NCBI GenBank assembly: GCA_039794085.1
Contig: JBDIWC010000008.1
Span: 44,845 to 108,844, forward strand
Length of the DNA stretch: 64,000 nucleotides
Direction: 5' to 3'
From: Gemmatimonadales bacterium
GTDB taxonomy: Bacteria; Gemmatimonadota; Gemmatimonadetes; Gemmatimonadales; GWC2-71-9
Made by a program: the position numbers and the translations under genes. Position 1 is the stretch's first letter, and each line of letters starts with the position of its first letter. This document shows positions 8,020 to 21,726 of this stretch, in pieces. Below the pieces are notes generated by a model. The model ran no database searches. It saw only the letters and a program-made list of their open reading frames with translations, and was not told the DNA's origin.

Positions 8020-8277
8020 CTATTGGGAGAGGCGCTTCGGCTCCCCGGAGGATGCGGGAGGCTGCTGCGAGGCGGCATCCATTTGCCTGCCCGGGGGAAG
8101 GTTTCGTTCCTCTCCCGTGCCGGTCACGGCGTTTTCCACGTCGCTGAAGCTCCTCTTGAACTCACGGATTCCCTTCCCGAACGACGCCCCGATCTCTGGA
8201 AGTCGCTTGGCCCCGAACACGAGCAACACGACCAGCAGGATGATCATGATCTCGCCGAAACCCAGATTTCCCAACAT
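8020..8277 (-). CDS. tatA: Twin-arginine translocase TatA/TatE subunit
   Basis: MLGNLGFGEIMIILLVVLLVFGAKRLPEIGASFGKGIREFK; GGAGG RBS before ATG 8277. Confidence 0.93.
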   Translation of the reverse strand: MLGNLGFGEIMIILLVVLLVFGAKRLPEIGASFGKGIREFKRSFSDVENAVTGTGEERNLPPGRQMDAASQQPPASSGEPKRLSQ

Positions 8278-11979: not shown

Positions 11980-13512
11980 TTACCCCGCCGTCCGGGCCGG
12001 ATCCAGACGTCCCTCGGCAACCAGGGCCGCCAGCCGCTCCAGATCCACCCCGGGTGGCCGGTCCACCGTCAGCGGGGCTACACCACCAGGTCCTCGGACA
12101 AGGTCGAAGAGCCGGCGCACGCCGCGACCGGGCTGGAGCGGGCGCAGGATCTCCAACCCTTGGGCGCCGCAGAGAAACTCGGCCGCCACCACCAGCTGGG
12201 CGTTCGCCAGAACTCGGCGGGCCTTGAATGCGGCGGCCATTCCCATGGGCACAAAGTCCTCCTGGTTGGCATCGGTGGGGATCGAGCCGATGCTGGCCGG
12301 ATAGGACAAGGTTCTCGATTCGGCCACCAGGGAGGCCGCCGTGATCTGCACCATCATGAATCCCGAGGAGAGGCCGGCCGACGAGGTCAGGAAGGCGGGG
12401 AGCCCCTGACTCAGATCGGGGTTGACCAGCCGCTCGATGCGCCGCTCACTGATAGTCTGCAGGGTGGTCAGCGCGATGGTGACGAAGTCCATAGCCTGGG
12501 CCACCGGCTGGCCGTGGAAGTTGCCCCCCGACAGCACCTCGGACCCGAACACCAGGGGATTGTCGGTCGAGGCGTTGAGCTCGACCGACGCCACGCGGCG
12601 CGCGAACGTGATCGCATCCCACACGGCACCCAGCACCTGAGGAGTGCACCGGAGGCTGTAGGCATCCTGGACCCGGGAGTCGCCCTGACGATGGGACTCC
12701 CGGATGGGGCTGTCGTGGAGGAGGTCGCGCATCAGGCGGGCGGCGATCCCCTGCCCCTGGTGGGGGCGGGCCTCATGAATCCGGGGATCGAGCGGGGTCG
12801 GGGTCCCTCGCAGCGCCTCCAGGCTCATCGCCGCCGCCCCGATCGCGGAGCGCCACAGAACCTCCGCGTCGTGCACCAGGAGGGTGAGGACGGCGGTCTG
12901 GGCCTGAGTTCCGTTGATGAAGGCCAGACCCTCCTTGGGGCCGAACGTGAAGGGCTCCAGCCCGCATTCCTTCAGGACGAGGTGCGATGCGTCAACGGTG
13001 CCATCCGGCCGGGCGAGGGTGCCCTCCCCCATCAATGCCAGCGCCAGGTGGCTGAGAGGTGCCAGATCCCCGCTCGCCCCCACGCTGCCCTGTTCCGGCA
13101 CGACTGGGATCGCCCCGCTGTTGAGCAGCGCCACCAGCGCTTGCGCCAGCGCCGGGCGCACGCCACTGGTGGGTCGGAGCAGCACATTGGCGCGGAGGCA
13201 CATCATGGCCCGTACCACGTCCCGCGGGAGGGGAGTCCCCACGCCCGCCGCGTGACTGCGGATCAGGTTGGCCTGCAGCGCGGTCAGGTCGTCCGGACCG
13301 ATGCGGACATCCGCCAGCTTGCCGAATCCGGTGTTGATGCCGTACATGGTGTCGCCCCGGGCCACGGCTCGCTCCACGACGGCACGGGTGCCGGCCATGG
13401 CGTCGAGGGCCCGGGGGTCGATGTCGATCCGGAGATCCGGATTCCGGGCAATGCGGGTCAGGTCCTCAATGGACAGCGACAGGCCGGTCAGGCGAAGGGG
13501 GGTGTCGGTCAT
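11980..13512 (-). CDS. hutH: Histidine ammonia-lyase
   Basis: YGINTGFG, HAL-type NLIRSHAAG, MIO motif GSVGASGDL, VQDAYSLRC, SGGNFHG, NQEDFVPMG; ATG 13512. Confidence 0.92.
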   Translation of the reverse strand: MTDTPLRLTGLSLSIEDLTRIARNPDLRIDIDPRALDAMAGTRAVVERAVARGDTMYGINTGFGKLADVRIGPDDLTALQANLIRSHAAGVGTPLPRDVVRAMMCLRANVLLRPTSGVRPALAQALVALLNSGAIPVVPEQGSVGASGDLAPLSHLALALMGEGTLARPDGTVDASHLVLKECGLEPFTFGPKEGLAFINGTQAQTAVLTLLVHDAEVLWRSAIGAAAMSLEALRGTPTPLDPRIHEARPHQGQGIAARLMRDLLHDSPIRESHRQGDSRVQDAYSLRCTPQVLGAVWDAITFARRVASVELNASTDNPLVFGSEVLSGGNFHGQPVAQAMDFVTIALTTLQTISERRIERLVNPDLSQGLPAFLTSSAGLSSGFMMVQITAASLVAESRTLSYPASIGSIPTDANQEDFVPMGMAAAFKARRVLANAQLVVAAEFLCGAQGLEILRPLQPGRGVRRLFDLVRGPGGVAPLTVDRPPGVDLERLAALVAEGRLDPARTAG

Positions 13513-13518
13513 GGGCGG

Positions 13519-13547
13519 AAAGTGCGGGGCCCCGGGACCGGGGGCAA
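13519..13547 (-). promoter_or_regulatory. Candidate leaderless promoter for hutH
   Basis: TTGCCC-17 nt-CACTTT, 6 nt before ATG; no SD. Confidence 0.35.
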
Positions 13548-13599
13548 GGTCGGGGTCCTCCCCGGAGCGATGGCGCATGTGGCGATGTGTCAGGCGTCG

Positions 13600-16500
13600 C
13601 TACCGGACGGAGGTCTGGTTGTAGTCGAACTTGATGTCGGGAAGGTCGATCAGGTGGATCGAGAAGAAGAAGGAGAAATTGCCGTTGGCGTTCTGCGCGA
13701 AATTGAACGCGGCCTGCCAGTCGTGAAGATCCCGCTGGAGCCGGAAGATGTGGCTCTCGAACTTTCCGTCCGTCGCGTTGTAGTTGGTGTCCCAGGCCAC
13801 GGCCCAGAACGCGGTGGGGCTGAAGGTGGTGTTGAAACGGATGTTGCTCTTGGTGGGCTGACGAACCGACAGGGTGTCCCCCTTGAGTGGGGGGCGGCTT
13901 CGGTTGATGGTGACGTTGATCGTGGAGGAGAACCCCCGGCCGCTCGGGAACCGCCCGAAGTCGCGGGCGCTGGTGATGGGCGCCTGGAACGGGGCTCCGG
14001 CGTTCGGGCTCATCCCCGGCGGGACCGTGGGGCGGTTGGCGTCGGGGGCATCCCGGTCCGCGATACCGAACAGGGAGCCGATCCCGCGTAGAGTGCGCCC
14101 GGTGAGGGTGAAACTCGCGTTCACGCTCTGGAGGAACGGTTCGAAGCGCGAGCTGTCGAACCCGGCCACTCCACGCCAGAGGTCGTGTCCCAGAGTGAGG
14201 TCAAATCCGGGCAGCAGATCCGAGTCGAACCGGTTGGTGATGAACTGGGTGACCCACCCGTTCCGCCCCGGCTTCTTGGCCTGCTCGAAGTCGAACGTGA
14301 TTCCCGACGTGGAAATGCCGAGGAGCCGGAACTTCCGCTGGGTACGACTCGTGGTATCCCCGGGAGCGGGCCGTTCCTTCGCCTCGAAGTTCTGGGACAG
14401 GGAGAGCGTGAGGGTCGTGACCGCGGGACTCTCGCGCGTCACCACCTGCCCGGGGTTCGCGACCGCTTCGGCGAACTCCTGGGACACGGTGGCCGTGGGC
14501 GAATGATTGAACGAGAGAGAGGGCGCAATGCTGTGCCGGATCCGCTCAATCGGTCCAAACCCGGGAAAGAACCCGAAGAAGGTCGGGGCCGCGGCCAGAC
14601 TGAAGGAGAGCCGCTTCCCCTGCACCAGGTAGGCCCCTCCGGTCCGCTCGTTTCGGATGACGAAGGGTTGTCCCGCCAACTTGTTCGCGATCCCGACGGA
14701 CGGGGTGACCTTCCACGAGCTCCGGAGGAGGAGCGGGAGGTTGATCCCGGTGTCCCAGTTCAGGGTGGTCGCGAAGGTCCCGGTGGTCACTTGCTGGACG
14801 CTGATCGAGTCATCCGGCTCCGGGGTGGAGAGATCGGGGACCTTCCGAGTGACGGTGCGGGGGCTCCGTTCCTCCCGGTCCGCAATGTTGACCGCGTTCC
14901 GCCAATCAAAGGTTCCGATGCGGAGCGGTGTCATGATGTTGATCGTTGTGTTGCGGGTCGTGGCGCGAAACGTCAGGGAGTCCAGTTCTCCCACCGGGGT
15001 CGCCAGGGAGACGATTCCATCCCGCCGTGTCGTCGCATTGCTCAACCGGAACGTGGGAGACCAGGTCACCGACCCCCCGAGATCGATCGGATTGGGGTTG
15101 AGGGACAGTTCCGGAAAGTTGGTCCGCACCTCGCTGTCGTTCGGGCTCTGGCTCCGGGTGCCCCCGAGGGAGGCCGTCCCCCACCGGAATCGGCGATCGA
15201 GATTCATCGAGGAGCGGATGTTCTGGGTGTTGACGATCGGGTCGATGGCGTTGTTGTTCAGGACTCGGGTGTTGCTCGCGACATCGAGGTTGAGCGTCAA
15301 GCGCGTGGCCACCCCGAAGCTCTGCCGGTGGTTCCAGGCGATGCGCGTGTTTGACTCCCCGCTGCCGTCGATCTGTTTCAGCCGTGACCAGGAAAGGTTT
15401 CCCTCCAGAAACCGGTCGAGCCACCGGTACTGCCCCGCGACCTCGATTCGCGTGCTCCGGTTGGCCAGCCAATCGAAGGTCCCCACAAAATCGAAGTAGT
15501 CGCTGGCGGCCCAGTAATACCCCATGTTGGTGACCTGGCGATTGAAGTTCCGGGTGGGGCGCACGATGTCGTTGAAGCCGAACCGCGGCACCAGAATGCC
15601 GGAGCGACGTCCCTGCTTGGTATCCTGGAAGATGAAGGGGAGCCAGAGCACCGGCACATCCCGGATGTAGAGCACCGCGGGGCGCGCCACCATCGTGGAC
15701 TGCGAGACCCATTTCACCTCTTTCGCGGCGAAATGATAGTGCGATTCGGGGAGGTCGCAGCTGGTGATCTCCTTGGCGGCGGCATACAGGCGGCTCGAGA
15801 CCGAGTCGACGGCCAGGTTGCCCCGGATGAACCAGTTGGCGCCCTGCTGGTTGAAGGAGGTGAGGGCGTCGGACAAGACCCCGCGCTCGACACAGGTGTC
15901 GTAGCGCACCGTGTCCCCGATGGCCACCTGGTTGTTCTGGAAGAGTCGCGGTCCCCCGGTGGCGGTGAAGCGGCAGGCCGGGTCGTCGTACTCGATGATC
16001 TCCGCCTCCAGGATCGCTCCGCTTCGTTCCGTCATGGCCTGGCCCTGCAGCCGCAGCAGGCGGGTCCCGGCGTTCACCGACGCCGAATCGGCCATGTAGC
16101 GCGTCACCGCGAAGCCGGGCCGGGTAAGGAGACGTTGGAGAATGGAATCCCCGGGTCCGAAGCTCTTGCTCGGGCCGGTCGGGAGCCCCATGCGCTGGGC
16201 CGCGGCGGAATCCCGGGCCACCTGCGCCGCCCGGATGGAGTCCTGGGCGGTCATCGAATCGGGCACCACCCGGGTGGTGTCCTGTTGTGCTGTGGCGGAT
16301 CCGGAGGGGACCCCCATCAGGAGCACCAGGGCTCCCACCGCGGCCGCCACCCGCCGGCGCCGGTGAATCACCATCGCCCCGGCCACCCCGACCTCGTAGA
16401 GCAACAGCAGCGGGAGGGTCATGATCAACATGGAGAAGACATCGGGACCCGGAGAGAAGAAGGCCCCCCCCACGAAGGCGAGCACCATCCAGTAGCGCCG

Positions 16501-17091
16501 GAACCGGTGGAGAATCACCGGGGTCACCACGCCGAGCGCCGCCAGCGTGATGATGATGAGCGGCAGCTCGAAGGAGAGTCCCATGCCGAGCATGATCCGG
16601 ATGACGAAGCCGAAGTACTTGTCATACGTGATCATGGTGGTGAACGATCCCGCCTCGATGCTGAGGAGGACGCTGATGGCCTTGGGTACCACCAGCAGGA
16701 ACGAGAGCACCGCCCCGGTCAGAAAGAGCAGCAGCCCCGCAAAGAGACTGGGGACGATCGCCTTCTTTTCCTTCTCGTAGAGGGCCGGAGAGAGAAACGC
16801 CCACACCTGCCAGAGGATGACCGGAGACGCCAGCACCAGGCCGGTGATGAATCCCAGCTTGAGCACGATCATGACCGGTTCGGTCGGGCTCAGGACGGTC
16901 AGTTTCCCGTCGGGAAGGAACGGGGCGATCGGCCCCTTGAGAACGTCGATCAGATGCAACTGGTCGACGAGAAGGAGGCCCAGGCCAAACCCCGCCACCA
17001 CGGCCAGCAGCACCCTCAGAATGCGGGTGCGCAACTCCTCGAGGTGGTCGAGGAACGGCATCTCACCCTCGACAGCGGGAGGTCGGGACAT
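13600..17091 (-). CDS. TatC - LptD (LPS-assembly outer-membrane protein) fusion
   Basis: N-terminal part is TatC (MPFLDHLEELR, LSPTEP, WAFLSPALY..EKK, FELP, PDVFSM...LYE); C-terminal ~900 aa is LptD-like (ITSCDLPESHYHF, VPVLWLPF...RRSGILVP, alternating beta strands, LQRDLHDW); no in-frame stop between them. Confidence 0.85.
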   Translation of the reverse strand: MSRPPAVEGEMPFLDHLEELRTRILRVLLAVVAGFGLGLLLVDQLHLIDVLKGPIAPFLPDGKLTVLSPTEPVMIVLKLGFITGLVLASPVILWQVWAFLSPALYEKEKKAIVPSLFAGLLLFLTGAVLSFLLVVPKAISVLLSIEAGSFTTMITYDKYFGFVIRIMLGMGLSFELPLIIITLAALGVVTPVILHRFRRYWMVLAFVGGAFFSPGPDVFSMLIMTLPLLLLYEVGVAGAMVIHRRRRVAAAVGALVLLMGVPSGSATAQQDTTRVVPDSMTAQDSIRAAQVARDSAAAQRMGLPTGPSKSFGPGDSILQRLLTRPGFAVTRYMADSASVNAGTRLLRLQGQAMTERSGAILEAEIIEYDDPACRFTATGGPRLFQNNQVAIGDTVRYDTCVERGVLSDALTSFNQQGANWFIRGNLAVDSVSSRLYAAAKEITSCDLPESHYHFAAKEVKWVSQSTMVARPAVLYIRDVPVLWLPFIFQDTKQGRRSGILVPRFGFNDIVRPTRNFNRQVTNMGYYWAASDYFDFVGTFDWLANRSTRIEVAGQYRWLDRFLEGNLSWSRLKQIDGSGESNTRIAWNHRQSFGVATRLTLNLDVASNTRVLNNNAIDPIVNTQNIRSSMNLDRRFRWGTASLGGTRSQSPNDSEVRTNFPELSLNPNPIDLGGSVTWSPTFRLSNATTRRDGIVSLATPVGELDSLTFRATTRNTTINIMTPLRIGTFDWRNAVNIADREERSPRTVTRKVPDLSTPEPDDSISVQQVTTGTFATTLNWDTGINLPLLLRSSWKVTPSVGIANKLAGQPFVIRNERTGGAYLVQGKRLSFSLAAAPTFFGFFPGFGPIERIRHSIAPSLSFNHSPTATVSQEFAEAVANPGQVVTRESPAVTTLTLSLSQNFEAKERPAPGDTTSRTQRKFRLLGISTSGITFDFEQAKKPGRNGWVTQFITNRFDSDLLPGFDLTLGHDLWRGVAGFDSSRFEPFLQSVNASFTLTGRTLRGIGSLFGIADRDAPDANRPTVPPGMSPNAGAPFQAPITSARDFGRFPSGRGFSSTINVTINRSRPPLKGDTLSVRQPTKSNIRFNTTFSPTAFWAVAWDTNYNATDGKFESHIFRLQRDLHDWQAAFNFAQNANGNFSFFFSIHLIDLPDIKFDYNQTSVR

Positions 17092-17130
17092 GGCAGGCTC
17101 AGGCGCGCGGCCGGCCTCGGGCACCGCCGG

Positions 17131-17916
17131 TCAGGGCCGGAGAGCCGAGAGCCGGTCGCGGGCGAGGTTGGCTTCCGGTGCCCGGGGATAATTGCGAACA
17201 ACCGTCTGGTAGGCATCGCGGGCGGCCTCCAGGTCCTGCCTCAGTTCGGCGAGTTGGCCGATCTTGTACCACGCCGTGGGGGCTCGCTCCGAGGACGCAT
17301 ACCGCGTCGTGACCTCGCGGAAGTAATGGGCCGCGGAGTCGGGGTTCTCCACGGCGAAGGTTTCCCCCAGGGAGAGGAGCGCGAAGGGAACCTGTTCGCT
17401 GGTGGGCCAGGCCCGGAGGAAGTCGCGGAAGGCGGCACGGGCCGTCCCGAGGCTCCCGCGGAGGTGCATGGCCCGGGCGGCCTGGAACATTTCGTCCGCC
17501 GACGGGGTGGGGGCCGGGGCCAGACTGTCCCCGAGCAGCGAATCGGGTGTGGCCGGAGCCTGCAGTTGCTGCCCCCGGGTGTCCAGTTGCACCTTGAGCT
17601 CGGACAGGCGCCGCTGGCTCTGGCCGGTGAGCTCCTGGATCTGCAGCAGCTGCTGCTGGATGTTGAAGAGATCCTCCGCGAGCTCCCCCTTCGAGATGCG
17701 CACCGATTCCCGCACCGACCGCAGGGAGTCCATCACCGCCTCCTGGGTCCGGAGGATGGCGCCGATGTCAGCCGCATGCGCACTGTCGCGCCGCGCGGCC
17801 TCGGTGCGGAGGACGAGAACCTGGGTCTCGACCTTCCGCACCGCGCCGTTGGTGGCGCACCCGCCCAGCAGCAGGGCGCAGGCGCCACCGACCAGCAACC
17901 GACGTCCGCTCATCAC
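17131..17916 (-). CDS. cpoB: Tol-Pal cell division coordinator CpoB/YbgF (lipoprotein)
   Basis: Lipobox LGGC, coiled coil, C-terminal TPRs (AWYKIG...YQTVVRNYP..PEA); follows pal. Confidence 0.8.
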   Translation of the reverse strand: MMSGRRLLVGGACALLLGGCATNGAVRKVETQVLVLRTEAARRDSAHAADIGAILRTQEAVMDSLRSVRESVRISKGELAEDLFNIQQQLLQIQELTGQSQRRLSELKVQLDTRGQQLQAPATPDSLLGDSLAPAPTPSADEMFQAARAMHLRGSLGTARAAFRDFLRAWPTSEQVPFALLSLGETFAVENPDSAAHYFREVTTRYASSERAPTAWYKIGQLAELRQDLEAARDAYQTVVRNYPRAPEANLARDRLSALRP

Positions 17917-18473
17917 GGGGTGGGCCGGATGCTTTCCCGCCCGGCGAGGATCTCGAACTCCCCGCGACGGTTCATGGCCCAGGCCGATTCGTTCTGCCCC
18001 CGGTCGAGGGGCCGCTCCTCGCCAAAGGAGATGATGGTGATCCGGTCCTCGGCGATCCCCTTGGCCACGAGGTACCGCTTGGCCGAGGCCGCGCGCCGGT
18101 TCCCCAGCGCCAGGTTGTACTCATCCGATCCCCGGTCATCGGCGTGTCCGGCGATCCGGATCCGCAACTGGGGATAGGTCCGGAGCAGATCGGCCTTCCG
18201 GTCCAGCACCGCCTGATCCGCGGGACGAATGTCCGAGCGGTCGTAGTCGAAGTGCACCATCGCCGCAAGATCGTTGACCACCCGGGTCCGGAACGCTTCC
18301 AGTTCCGCCGCACTGTTGTCCGGGGCCGGGGGGGGCGGCGGCGGGGGGGGCGGCGGGGGGGGAGGGGGCGGGGGGGGAGGGGCCGGGGCGGGAACCACCT
18401 CGGGCTGCTTCTTGCCGCACGCTCCCGCTGTCAGTGCCATCAGGCCGAGCAGCAGTATCGTCCGCATCCGCAT
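17913..18473 (-). CDS. pal: Peptidoglycan-associated lipoprotein Pal with polyproline linker
   Basis: Lipobox AGAC, VHFDYD, GHADDRGSDEYNLALGNRRA, ISFGEERP, NRR. Confidence 0.93.
   Translation of the reverse strand: MRMRTILLLGLMALTAGACGKKQPEVVPAPAPPPPPPPPPPPPPPPPPPAPDNSAAELEAFRTRVVNDLAAMVHFDYDRSDIRPADQAVLDRKADLLRTYPQLRIRIAGHADDRGSDEYNLALGNRRAASAKRYLVAKGIAEDRITIISFGEERPLDRGQNESAWAMNRRGEFEILAGRESIRPTP
18327..18380. repeat. (CCN)18 tract encoding 18 consecutive prolines
   Basis: G-rich run on + strand containing several G7-G9 homopolymers. Confidence 0.95.
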
Positions 18474-18497
18474 TGCAAACTCCTCGTTGAAGTCATC

Positions 18498-19793
18498 CTA
18501 CCGTGGGCTCAAATATCGCGACCAGGACGGCAGCCGCGCCACTCCGGGTGTCGGGATCTGCCGCACCCGAAAAGTATCCAGATCGATCACATGCAACTGT
18601 CCCCGACCGGTCCGATCGGACACGAACACCAGATGCCGCCCGTCGGGCGCCCAACTCGGATCCTCGTTCCGCCCGCTGGACGAGAGCTGCCTCGCCTGCC
18701 GCCGGGCGATATCGAAGACCCAGATCTGCGGAGTCCGGGCGGTTTCCCGGTGAAATGCGACCGTGGTACCGTCCGGTGACCACTCGGGGGCATTGGAACT
18801 CCCCGTCCGTCCGAAATCGAACGGGACGAGCAACTCCTGCTGAGTGCCGTCGCTCGCCATGGCATAGATCTGCTGCCCCCCGGCACGCGTCGACACGAAC
18901 CCGATCCGGCGTCCGTCAGGAGAATACGCAGGCGAGAGATTATCCGCAAACGGTCCCGAGGTGAGGCGCTCGACGCAGCACATCTCACCCACATTGACCC
19001 GCACGAGGTTGGTGCCGCGTTCTCCCGACTGGGCAAACACCACGAAGCGACCGTCCGGGGAAAAAACCGGAGTGATGTTGGTCTGGCTGTCGGTGGTGGG
19101 CAGGGTGGCCCGGGACCCCGTGGCCAGGCGCTGCAGCACCACAGACCACCCGGACTCATGCAGGTGGACATAGGCGAACTGACTCCCGTCGGGCGACCAG
19201 GCCGGGCTGAGGGCCGTCTGCCCCCCGGGAGTCATGGGTGTGAGGCCGTACCCATCGCTGTCGATCCGAAAGATCCGGCCTCCGGAAACGAACAGGATCC
19301 GGCTGGCCGCGTACCCGGTGACCCCGGCCCCCCACTGGACGATCTCATCGGCCAGACGGTGAAGGCTCAGGCGGCTCTCTCCGGCTCCGGTCACATCGAG
19401 GGGTCTGGTGACTTCGACCCGGACCTCCCTCCGTTCCACGTCATGAAGCCGGACGTTCACCCCGCTCGCGGCCTCCCGCAGTTCCAGGACAAGGATCGCG
19501 CCCAGGGTCTGGTAGAGCGCGTAGTTGATGGAATCCACGGCGGGGGCGACGATAGTGGAGTCCGACCGGAGAGTGATGACCTCGAATCGATCCGAATAGT
19601 CCAGGTCCCGGGCAAGAATCGTCCGGAGGGAGTCAAGCCGCGGGATGGTGGGAAGAATCACGATGCCCGGACGAGCCCCGGGGCGATATTCGGTACCGAG
19701 AATGATCCGGTCCGGGGTCCGGGTCGTGTCCTGCCCGGCCAGGGGACCGGCCAGTCCGGCCAGGGCCGCCAGCAGGGGAAGGAACCGCCTCAC
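18498..19793 (-). CDS. tolB: Tol-Pal beta-propeller protein TolB
   Basis: Signal peptide, DLDYSDRF, HRLADEI, repeated PD40 motifs (PAWSPDG, PVFSPDG, PEWSPDG). Confidence 0.9.
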   Translation of the reverse strand: MRRFLPLLAALAGLAGPLAGQDTTRTPDRIILGTEYRPGARPGIVILPTIPRLDSLRTILARDLDYSDRFEVITLRSDSTIVAPAVDSINYALYQTLGAILVLELREAASGVNVRLHDVERREVRVEVTRPLDVTGAGESRLSLHRLADEIVQWGAGVTGYAASRILFVSGGRIFRIDSDGYGLTPMTPGGQTALSPAWSPDGSQFAYVHLHESGWSVVLQRLATGSRATLPTTDSQTNITPVFSPDGRFVVFAQSGERGTNLVRVNVGEMCCVERLTSGPFADNLSPAYSPDGRRIGFVSTRAGGQQIYAMASDGTQQELLVPFDFGRTGSSNAPEWSPDGTTVAFHRETARTPQIWVFDIARRQARQLSSSGRNEDPSWAPDGRHLVFVSDRTGRGQLHVIDLDTFRVRQIPTPGVARLPSWSRYLSPR

Positions 19794-20467
19794 GGTGTTG
19801 TCCTTGGCTTGAAGTAGAAGGTGATCGGGAGAGCGTCGGCTTCGAATCCCTCCGGGAGCGGCCCGAAGGCCCCCGCCAGGGCGGCCGCTTCGACGGCGCC
19901 CCGGGCCTCCAAGTCGAAGCTGTAATTCCGGGAGCTCCGGGTCACCTGGATCTCGCGGACCGTCCCGTCACGCAGAATGGTGAAACTGACGTCGGTTCGA
20001 AGAGCCGCATTGCTGACCGGACGGTCCCACCGCCGGAGGATCTGGGTCACGATGTTCTGGAGATACTCGGGAAAGGGAAACGCGAGTCCCTTCAAGTCCA
20101 CCGTGGCCACATCGGATCCGGTGCTCGGGGTTTCCCCCGGGAGCGGAGTTGCCGGGTTGGCCGTGGCGGGGGCGCGCTCCACCGGTTTCGGCGTCGCCTT
20201 GGCAGGTGGAGTCGGGGTCACCGGCTTGATTGCTGGCTTGGGGGGAGGGGCAACGCGCTCCACAGGCCGGGGGACCGCCTCGGCGGCGAGCCGGCGCTGG
20301 GTGGTCGGCGCCGGAGCCGCCGTGAGCTTGACGGCGTAGGTCTGCGGCAGAGGTTGCGACGCGGAAGCCGACCACAGGAGGGCCACCGCGGCCGCGGTGT
20401 GGATTCCCGTGGTCCAGAGGAGCCCCGCCATCAGCTGGCTCCGCTCGAGGGTCCCCTGCCCTGTCAT
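19790..20467 (-). CDS. TolA/TonB-family energy transducer
   Basis: N-terminal TM with His (TGIHTAAA), Pro-rich linker, TonB_C-like domain (FTILRDG...SSRNYSFD). Confidence 0.8.
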   Translation of the reverse strand: MTGQGTLERSQLMAGLLWTTGIHTAAAVALLWSASASQPLPQTYAVKLTAAPAPTTQRRLAAEAVPRPVERVAPPPKPAIKPVTPTPPAKATPKPVERAPATANPATPLPGETPSTGSDVATVDLKGLAFPFPEYLQNIVTQILRRWDRPVSNAALRTDVSFTILRDGTVREIQVTRSSRNYSFDLEARGAVEAAALAGAFGPLPEGFEADALPITFYFKPRTTP

Positions 20468-20898
20468 GGCAGCCGCTCATCCTCCGTCACCAGATTCACA
20501 TCCACCACTCCCGACTCCCGGATGGCAGCCAGCACCCGGACCACCTGCCCGTAGGCGGCACGCCCGTCGGCCCGGAGATAGACCCCATTGGACTGGCGGG
20601 AACGCGCGAGGGCCCCGAAGGTGGAGCGGAAGTCGTTGTAGGAGATCTCGGTGTCGTCCACGAAGATCGTCCCCCGGCGATCGATGCTGACGGTTACCCC
20701 CTCCCGCGGGGAGAGCGGACGCGCCTCGGCCCGAGGCAGCTGCACCTCCACACCGCCCTGCATGATCGGCGCGGTGATCATGAAGATGATGAGCAGCACG
20801 AAAGCCACGTCCACCAGGGACGTCACGTTGATGTCCGCCGAAGGGGTGAGCCCCCGTCTCCGGCCTCCCCCGAGGTGCCCCTGCCCGACGCCCGCCAT
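20464..20898 (-). CDS. tolR: TolR/ExbD
   Basis: INVTSLVDVAFVLLIIFMITAP, LRADGRAAYGQVV. Confidence 0.9.
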   Translation of the reverse strand: MAGVGQGHLGGGRRRGLTPSADINVTSLVDVAFVLLIIFMITAPIMQGGVEVQLPRAEARPLSPREGVTVSIDRRGTIFVDDTEISYNDFRSTFGALARSRQSNGVYLRADGRAAYGQVVRVLAAIRESGVVDVNLVTEDERLP

Positions 20899-21605
20899 CA
20901 GATCAGGCCCTCCCGGGCCATCCATCCGATGAGTTCATTCCCGAAACCCTCCAGCTCTCCCTCCAGGCGCGAGATCCGGCTCGCGAAATAGTTGTACGCC
21001 ATCACGGCGGGGATCGCCGCCGCCAGCCCGGCCACGGTGGTCACCAGGGCTTCCGCCACCCCGGGGGCCACGGCGGCCATGTTGCTCGACCCCCCCGTCG
21101 AGATCCCGATGAATGAACGCATCACCCCGAGCACCGTTCCCAGGAGACCGAGCAGGGGACTGACCGATCCAATGGTGGCCAGCCAGGTGATGTAGTGCGA
21201 TACATGGTCCCGTTCGGACGCCACCTCCTTGCCGAGCACCATCTTCAGGGCCTCGAGCTGGCTCTCCGACAGGGTGTGACGGGCCGTGTCCGCTTCGGTC
21301 AGCGCTCCGGGACGGAGCTCGGAGTAGAAGGTGATTCCCTCCCGGAAAAGGCGATTGTAGGGAGAGGGAGGAAGCTTCATGGCCGCCCGGTAGGCGTCAT
21401 TGAGACGGGGAGACCTCTCCAGTTCCTCGAAGAACCGCGTGGCCTGTCCCCCGAGACGCCTCATCTGCCACCATTTCCACCCGATCAAAAACCAGGAGGC
21501 GAAGGAGAACACCGCGATCGTGATCAATACGATCCGGGTCTCGGTGTTGGCGGTCAGAATGAGTTCCGCCGCGGACGACGGGAGCGGGCCTGGCGCCTGC
21601 AGCAT
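20898..21605 (-). CDS. tolQ: TolQ/ExbB proton channel
   Basis: LATIGSVSPLLGLLGTVLG, VAPGVAEALVTT..GLAAAIPA; start uncertain (21605 chosen). Confidence 0.88.
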   Translation of the reverse strand: MLQAPGPLPSSAAELILTANTETRIVLITIAVFSFASWFLIGWKWWQMRRLGGQATRFFEELERSPRLNDAYRAAMKLPPSPYNRLFREGITFYSELRPGALTEADTARHTLSESQLEALKMVLGKEVASERDHVSHYITWLATIGSVSPLLGLLGTVLGVMRSFIGISTGGSSNMAAVAPGVAEALVTTVAGLAAAIPAVMAYNYFASRISRLEGELEGFGNELIGWMAREGLI

Positions 21606-21726
21606 GGGCGGTCCTGGCGAAGGGTCCGGAACAACGACGAGTGCTGCCCGGTAAGATAGCATCACCCGGCCGGCATCCGGCACAGGCAACGTTGAACCCG
21701 TCCCGATCCACACGGCTCATGCCAAA

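Follow-up and report, generated by a model that had tools for sequence, protein, structure and literature searches.

A TatC-LptD fusion of Gemmatimonadales with a conserved internal signal peptide, probably a polyprotein cut by signal peptidase I

Introduction

In Bradyrhizobium japonicum, the cytochrome b-c1 precursor FbcH is reportedly made from one open reading frame (ORF) and processed into two proteins, as Thony-Meyer et al. are said to have described in 1989 and 1991, and the uncleaved precursor reportedly remained functional. Here, we describe a fused gene of a Gemmatimonadales bacterium that joins TatC, the inner-membrane translocase of twin-arginine (Tat) export, to LptD, the outer-membrane barrel of lipopolysaccharide (LPS) insertion. 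The gene lies in a stretch of 64,000 nucleotides (assembly GCA_039794085.1, contig JBDIWC010000008.1, positions 44,845 to 108,844 of the forward strand), hereafter the window, in whose numbering positions are given unless another contig is named. Its layout is like that reported for FbcH: a polytopic inner-membrane protein leads into a signal-like internal linker that carries an A-x-A motif, and one ORF holds two complete proteins. We estimate at about 0.82 the probability that signal peptidase I (SPase I) cuts the product, a natural polyprotein, into TatC and free LptD, the fusion being near-neutral. No description of a TatC-LptD fusion was found in the literature searched, which included the accessible parts of PMC9360617 and PMC13673990, with most subscription journals and supplements outside its scope; "LptD" and "Gemmatimonad" have 0 occurrences in the accessible text of the latter, a review.

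Results

The fused gene is a single open frame running from 17091 to 13600 on the minus strand, with 1163 codons and no interruption. The initial annotation had described an ORF of ~1160 residues, TatC followed by an LptD-like part, joined by a linker reading HRRRR to ATA|QQD; both profiles matched the translated frame, and the linker was found as described. The parts are as follows.

13600 to 17091, minus strand: fused tatC-lptD ORF, 1163 residues; Met11 at 17061 is a possible alternative start
16369 to 17061, minus strand: TatC moiety, residues 11-241, with six hydrophobic segments, profile matches and key residues kept
16351 to 16365, minus strand: HRRRR, TatC's own basic tail behind its sixth transmembrane segment (TM6) and predicted n-region of the internal signal
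16309 to 16350, minus strand: short hydrophobic (h-) region, residues 248-261, the seventh segment
16288 to 16308, minus strand: c-region PSGSATA, residues 262-268, ending in A-T-A, the predicted SPase I site
16285 to 16287, minus strand: Gln269, predicted new N-terminus and pyroglutamate candidate, invariant in the alignment described below and matching a genome-wide +1 Gln bias
16195 to 16284, minus strand: variable spacer with abundant D-(S/T)-(A/I/L/V/M/T) motifs (residues 271, 278, 284 and 294)
13603 to 16194, minus strand: conserved LptD moiety, residues 300-1163, matched by Pfam/NCBIfam profiles, PDB 7omm and Atlas LptD clusters

We compared the linker across 121 proteins with 118 distinct junctions; signal-peptide calls were heuristic throughout. 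The junctions carry 3-8 Lys/Arg residues (median 5) before the h-region, and a small-x-[A/G/S]|Q motif falls within the fixed 12-residue window after it in 116 of 118, versus 42 of 118 for the next window downstream. Position -1 is Ala in 108 junctions and -3 in 89, while -2 is free; when the site was chosen blind to +1, Gln stood there in 104 of 118. An alignment of 57 of the 121 proteins, unanchored on the cleavage site, showed Q269 invariant (57/57), A268 at 96% and A266 at 68%, most neighboring linker columns having a 25-70% majority. With its basic n-region, short h-region and small residues at -3 and -1, the linker has the makings of a Sec/SPase I signal, and the lipobox Cys of an SPase II signal is present in 0 of 118 junctions. 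The signal occupies residues 243-268, behind six transmembrane (TM) segments rather than at an N-terminus. Its best 19-mer hydropathy is 1.77, versus 1.64 for 255 N-terminal signals of the genome and 2.35 for TM3 of TatC, and the distance from the end of the h-region to the predicted cut is 8 residues, versus 7 in the N-terminal signals. By these measures, the seventh segment is signal-like, not TM-like.

The arginines of the linker had also been proposed to bind TatC in cis as a twin-arginine signal, which would route LptD through Tat or regulate TatC. Arg pairs do occur in nearly all junctions. However, 0 of 118 carry the motif S/T-R-R-x-hydrophobic-hydrophobic, and 5 of 118 a TatFind-like pattern. 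Moreover, TatC generally has a basic tail, also when unfused and in Aquifex, and β-barrels are exported unfolded by Sec. With the Tat motif not conserved, we consider cis binding highly improbable.

The preference for Gln extends across the source genome. Gln follows the predicted SPase I site in 284 of 542 signal-like N-termini, 6.8 times the background, in a set derived from heuristic calls of 3,223 genes; the genome encodes a PF05096-type glutaminyl cyclase (C39:19730-20476) and one SPase I gene. A +1 Gln is meaningful only if a free N-terminus arises at that position, so its presence in the linker supports cleavage there. The +1 Gln bias together with the PF05096 glutaminyl cyclase is also an observation in its own right, of a Q-rule outside Bacteroidota.

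The spacer that follows Gln is 19-49 residues long, without conservation of length. We counted 315 D-(S/T)-(A/I/L/V/M/T) motifs in the 118 spacers versus 23 in shuffles, and the motif is modestly enriched in the secreted proteins of the source genome (observed/expected 1.47 vs 1.09). It corresponds to the O-glycosylation motif of Bacteroidota as given in the accessible part of PMC8550257, hinting at O-glycosylation of that type in Gemmatimonadota. The motifs fit a periplasmic location of the spacer and would be equally expected in a cut and an uncut protein.

Both halves look functional from their sequences. PF00902 (TatC) matches residues 15-227 over the full model (203.6 bits vs cut-off 25.1), and TIGR00945 tatC of NCBIfam is likewise over its threshold (195.9 bits vs cut-off 132.7). 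An alignment to 9dzz indicates that the equivalents of E. coli H12, F94, E103, E170 and D211 are kept; in the 57-protein alignment, the corresponding H16 is conserved in 53 of 57 (4 gaps), F99, E108 and E175 in 57/57, and D217 in 55/57. F94 and E103 are named as the twin-arginine binding site in the accessible part of PMC13673990. LptD_2 (PF19838) scores 123.8 bits vs cut-off 22.5, with its best stretch at residues 468-669, and the LptD half resembles LptD of PDB 7omm (E 2.8e-5) and Atlas LptD clusters of Gemmatimonadota (0.99). The jellyroll profile PF03968 gives a weak match to it (E 0.16), and its jellyroll and barrel shape is predicted from profile matches. The fused protein has Cys at residues 373, 400 and 445 only, and the last 450 residues (window region 13603-14950) are Cys-free in 110 of 110 full-length homologs. 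In E. coli LptD, disulfides link cysteines of the N-domain and the barrel; since the last 450 residues hold no Cys, barrel disulfides of the E. coli type are absent here.

A tblastn search with either half matched only the fused locus in the 4.16 Mb genome, which is 94.7% complete. Because the fusion is thus the genome's only TatC and only LptD, both halves must work, and in different membranes.

We examined how widely the fusion occurs. Residues 150-450 as query gave 182 matches, in a search that admits proteins of 639-2036 residues only and is blind to split forms; both Pfam families were present in 120 of 120 among the matches listed, and the taxon-named ones among these were Gemmatimonadales/Gemmatimonadota. 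Named database entries of these fusions are labeled TatC, so LptD lies hidden in the annotation of a common soil lineage. Among 92 genomes of the same family, 90 had a TatC match, and in 82 of these 90 (including the unpublished G086 and G203) the gene is fused: 74 by an open frame of at least 1,100 residues and 8 by reading of the DNA; in 7 of these 8 the contig ends within the gene, in one case shortly past the +1 Gln. Rather than all relatives having separate genes, the fusion is therefore widespread in the family, with its cleavage motif conserved. Within the family, the genes are adjacent but split in G012, G079, G127 and G165, and LptD stands apart from any TatC in G009, G014, G097 and G191. 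G010 and G131 were left unscored, their loci being broken by contig ends, and a fusion suggested by frame length in G050 was rejected when the locus proved split.

Outside the order, a long TatC frame occurred in 0 of 40 genomes of a phylum sample (maximum 451 residues; unpublished G243 included), and tatC was directly followed by a separate lptD in all 12 loci read. The phylum sample of family f2 had a long TatC frame in 2 of 29 genomes, and a third f2 fusion came from a separate search. In sister family f3, lptD is likewise a gene of its own directly behind tatC in all 13 adjacent loci. These 12/12 and 13/13 loci indicate that the pair was ancestrally adjacent. Stop and start of the unfused pairs mostly overlap or abut, and in 5 of the 13 f3 loci (L028, L105, L108, L109 and L110) the tatC stop is followed at once by an in-frame lptD GTG. 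These five are one substitution from fusion, and read-through of the stop would give a fused product.

Comparison of a distant TatC with longer proteins gave 26 matches, made up of 10 TatC-LptD_2 fusions and 16 other extended TatCs without LptD. The "TatC" of Candidatus Brocadia (P0141) carries an extra hydrophobic segment and PF04773 after TatC, with no A-x-A|Q site. In the source genome, 2 of 42 multi-TM long-tailed proteins were flagged as internal-signal polyproteins, so these are not a genome-wide habit; one is the TatC-LptD fusion, and the other, which resembles a transhydrogenase beta, has no basic cluster. A self-comparison of the homolog alignment found nothing.

An assembly error, or a stop codon lost recently in a single strain, was considered as the source of the fusion. 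Run X2, from the same sample, has a contig with 0 differences over 16009-17300. Contigs of X4 and X5, from another study, span 13500-17300 without a break; they differ by 212 substitutions, and their sole indel inside the ORF is a 12-nt in-frame loss at 14442-14459, with none near the junction; this comparison covers continuity and indels but not stop codons, the substitution list being incomplete. Against G001 of the same genus, the ratio of synonymous-only to amino-acid codon changes is 19:1 in TatC, 7:1 in residues 241-295 and 135:25 in LptD. The agreement of independent contigs, both domains in every homolog among the matches listed, the many fused family genomes and the synonymous excess in both halves and the junction refute this explanation, which can practically be set aside.

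We reconstructed the history of the fusion on LptD. On a 72-row tree (LG+G4, quick search, rooted on six outside-order genomes), the fused and unfused states must have interchanged at least 11 times, all of these changes being forced by branches with a Shimodaira-Hasegawa-like approximate likelihood-ratio test (SH-aLRT) value of at least 95, and a 56-row tree under a mixture model yielded 8. The simplest reading would be four fusions and seven splits, the fusions falling in the ancestor of the window's family, genus g29, G074 and P0124. The g29 fusions retain the full acidic TatC tail, which in the window's family is trimmed to the basic cluster; unfused TatCs of other Gemmatimonadota keep the longer acidic tail, and split relatives, like Aquifex TatC, also have the basic tail behind TM6. 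Since the g29 fusions keep the tail and Aquifex TatC has one, HRRRR is TatC's own, and not part of an old signal of LptD as first supposed.

LptDs that are split off again or stand without TatC (G165, G127, G009, G014, G097 and G191) bear the same kind of signal, now N-terminal. G009 and G014 no longer have a tatC between cpoB and lptD; they carry a different tatC at another place in the genome, and their LptD starts with a signal of the same build. G075 has the fusion plus a second tatC, and stand-alone second tatC genes were found at L035 (G035), L053 (G075), L067 (G113) and L071 (G184). The four members with LptD apart all have tatC elsewhere, which suggests that replacement of TatC allowed loss of the fused half.

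Cleavage was weighed against an uncleaved trans-envelope protein, in which the seventh helix would be a permanent anchor and LptD would sit in the outer membrane, tethered to TatC through the motif-rich spacer. In its favor, spacer plus jellyroll could reach across part of the periplasm, most family genomes have retained this old fusion, and the uncleaved FbcH precursor reportedly stayed functional. Yet an anchor offers no reason to conserve small residues at -3 and -1 and Gln at +1 in a hypervariable linker, and the segment resembles a signal rather than a TM helix. The spacer varies in length and is the same in unfused LptD, and the repeated splits would go unexplained. A permanent tether thus seems very unlikely, and we give as little credence to an uncut, or slowly or conditionally cut, chain with a glycosylated spacer that would tie Tat export sites to LPS insertion sites beside Tol-Pal.

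Free LptD could also arise by internal restart, that is, by translation that begins in frame within TM6 or the linker, with the full-length chain minor or also cut. One element at the junction could serve this route.

16384 to 16395, minus strand: GAGGT, 4 nt and GTG (Val236), the junction's only start-like codon preceded by a Shine-Dalgarno (SD) sequence; not conserved

Initiation there would give a normal precursor, and an in-frame ATG, GTG or TTG lies between the LYE motif and the h-region in 28 of 31 fused loci (of 32, near-identical L002 being omitted). However, a start-like codon with an SD match of at least 4 nt occurs in 5 of the 31, a number that a per-codon background of 15% would already account for; ATG is found in 5, and 3 have no start-like codon at all. 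Met occurs in this stretch in 18 of 118 proteins; Met240 (16374), at which the initial annotation had placed a possible restart, is not conserved and lacks an SD. The GAGGT derives from conserved Y-E-V codons of TatC, and, without a stop, ribosomes from the tatC start would still make the full chain. We regard internal restart as unlikely.

Two further features provide the genomic context.

17131 to 21713, minus strand: tolQ-tolR-tolA/tonB-tolB-pal-cpoB, upstream of the fusion on the same strand
8020 to 8277, minus strand: tatA-family gene, the genome's only PF02416 match

hutH comes next after the fused gene, and the tatA-family gene lies 5 kb downstream. Its being the single TatA/B-family match in the genome suggests a two-component TatAC system. 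Profile searches found LptE and LptC in the genome, and an LptB-like gene was recognized by reading. The LptA profiles PF03968 and PF13100 had no match in this 94.7% complete genome. A 499-residue secreted protein (C16:9833-11332, minus strand), whose first 476 residues have no Pfam match, sits between lptC and the lptB-like gene and is likely a long, divergent LptA, a positional candidate; with this protein in place, the idea that LptD replaces LptA was dropped.

Discussion

The comparative data favor a polyprotein that SPase I separates into TatC and LptD. As in standard membrane-protein biogenesis, the first helix of TatC would target the ribosome and SecYEG would insert the six TatC helices. 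The topology implies that the basic tail would stay cytoplasmic, while the seventh segment would insert N-in/C-out and open translocation of the ~895-residue LptD. LepB would then cut after Ala268, and the freed Gln269 would probably be cyclized to pyroglutamate, as would most exported proteins of the source genome. LptD would proceed to the β-barrel assembly machinery (BAM) and LptE, and TatC would either keep an extra helix of ~25 residues or lose it to signal-peptide peptidase. The underlying mechanism is probably ordinary. As to its origin, a coupled tatC-lptD pair may have fused through stop loss or a frameshift, with the acidic TatC tail trimmed afterwards in the window's family.

Of the proposal in the initial annotation, the internal signal cut by SPase I is well supported by the conserved Q269 and A268, the +1 Gln habit and the re-split LptDs; the origin given for its arginines needed correction, and the motive of fixing 1:1 synthesis is less convincing. 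Before any fusion, the two genes were already coupled in translation, their stop and start overlapping or abutting, and the fusion was repeatedly lost, so stoichiometry is a weak reason for it. Because cleavage would restore the two usual proteins, the fused state may be close to neutral, and it has been gained and lost repeatedly; a near-neutral fusion that is rarely reversed is the simpler explanation.

Several points weigh against this interpretation. Unfused members of the window's family were deliberately over-represented in the tree sample, so the 11 and 8 changes are counts of events found, not rates, and part of the splits could be ancestral states that were simply kept, gain and loss being ambiguous on some branches. 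That 82 of 90 family genomes retain the fusion could point to a benefit, for example co-translational targeting of a very large barrel. Internal restart would likewise lead one to expect a conserved A-x-A|Q, and the GAGGT-preceded GTG at Val236 could yield an LptD made in that way.

If cleavage occurs as proposed, the fusion would be a natural bacterial polyprotein whose products reach different membranes, and SecYEG and LepB would be able to export an outer-membrane barrel of 900 residues co-translationally and to release it from behind a membrane protein with six helices. The fusion would offer a ready substrate for work on internal signal peptides and on barrel targeting by the signal recognition particle route. 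Two envelope genes that join and separate repeatedly while keeping the signal between them would also make a clean example of gene fusion that is reversible and near-neutral.

Among known arrangements, the adjacent, coupled tatC and lptD of other Gemmatimonadota have the same order and proteins and, within the order, the same type of signal with +1 Gln, but they keep a stop, a separate start and a longer acidic TatC tail. The haloarchaeal extended TatCs, namely TatCt with 14 TM segments and TatCx with 10, indicate in the accessible part of PMC13673990 that C-terminal membrane extensions are tolerated; unlike the present fusion, they are TatC duplications or extra helices with no cleavable exported passenger. 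The Q-rule of Bacteroidetes, in the portion of PMC5837995 available, which does not mention Gemmatimonadota, likewise pairs +1 Gln after SPase I sites with a glutaminyl cyclase, whereas here the rule serves as a marker of an internal site and the cyclase is of the PF05096 type. In flaviviral polyproteins, as far as the partial sources consulted describe them, internal signals cut by signal peptidase of the endoplasmic reticulum also free separate proteins, but in a eukaryotic and viral setting with no outer membrane. FbcH reportedly yields two subunits of one inner-membrane complex, whereas TatC and LptD belong to unrelated machines in different membranes and their fusion arose and reverted several times. 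With halves that serve unrelated machines, the second being an outer-membrane barrel, cutting is probably obligatory in TatC-LptD. What differs from the FbcH precedent is that the predicted products are bound for different membranes and different machines.

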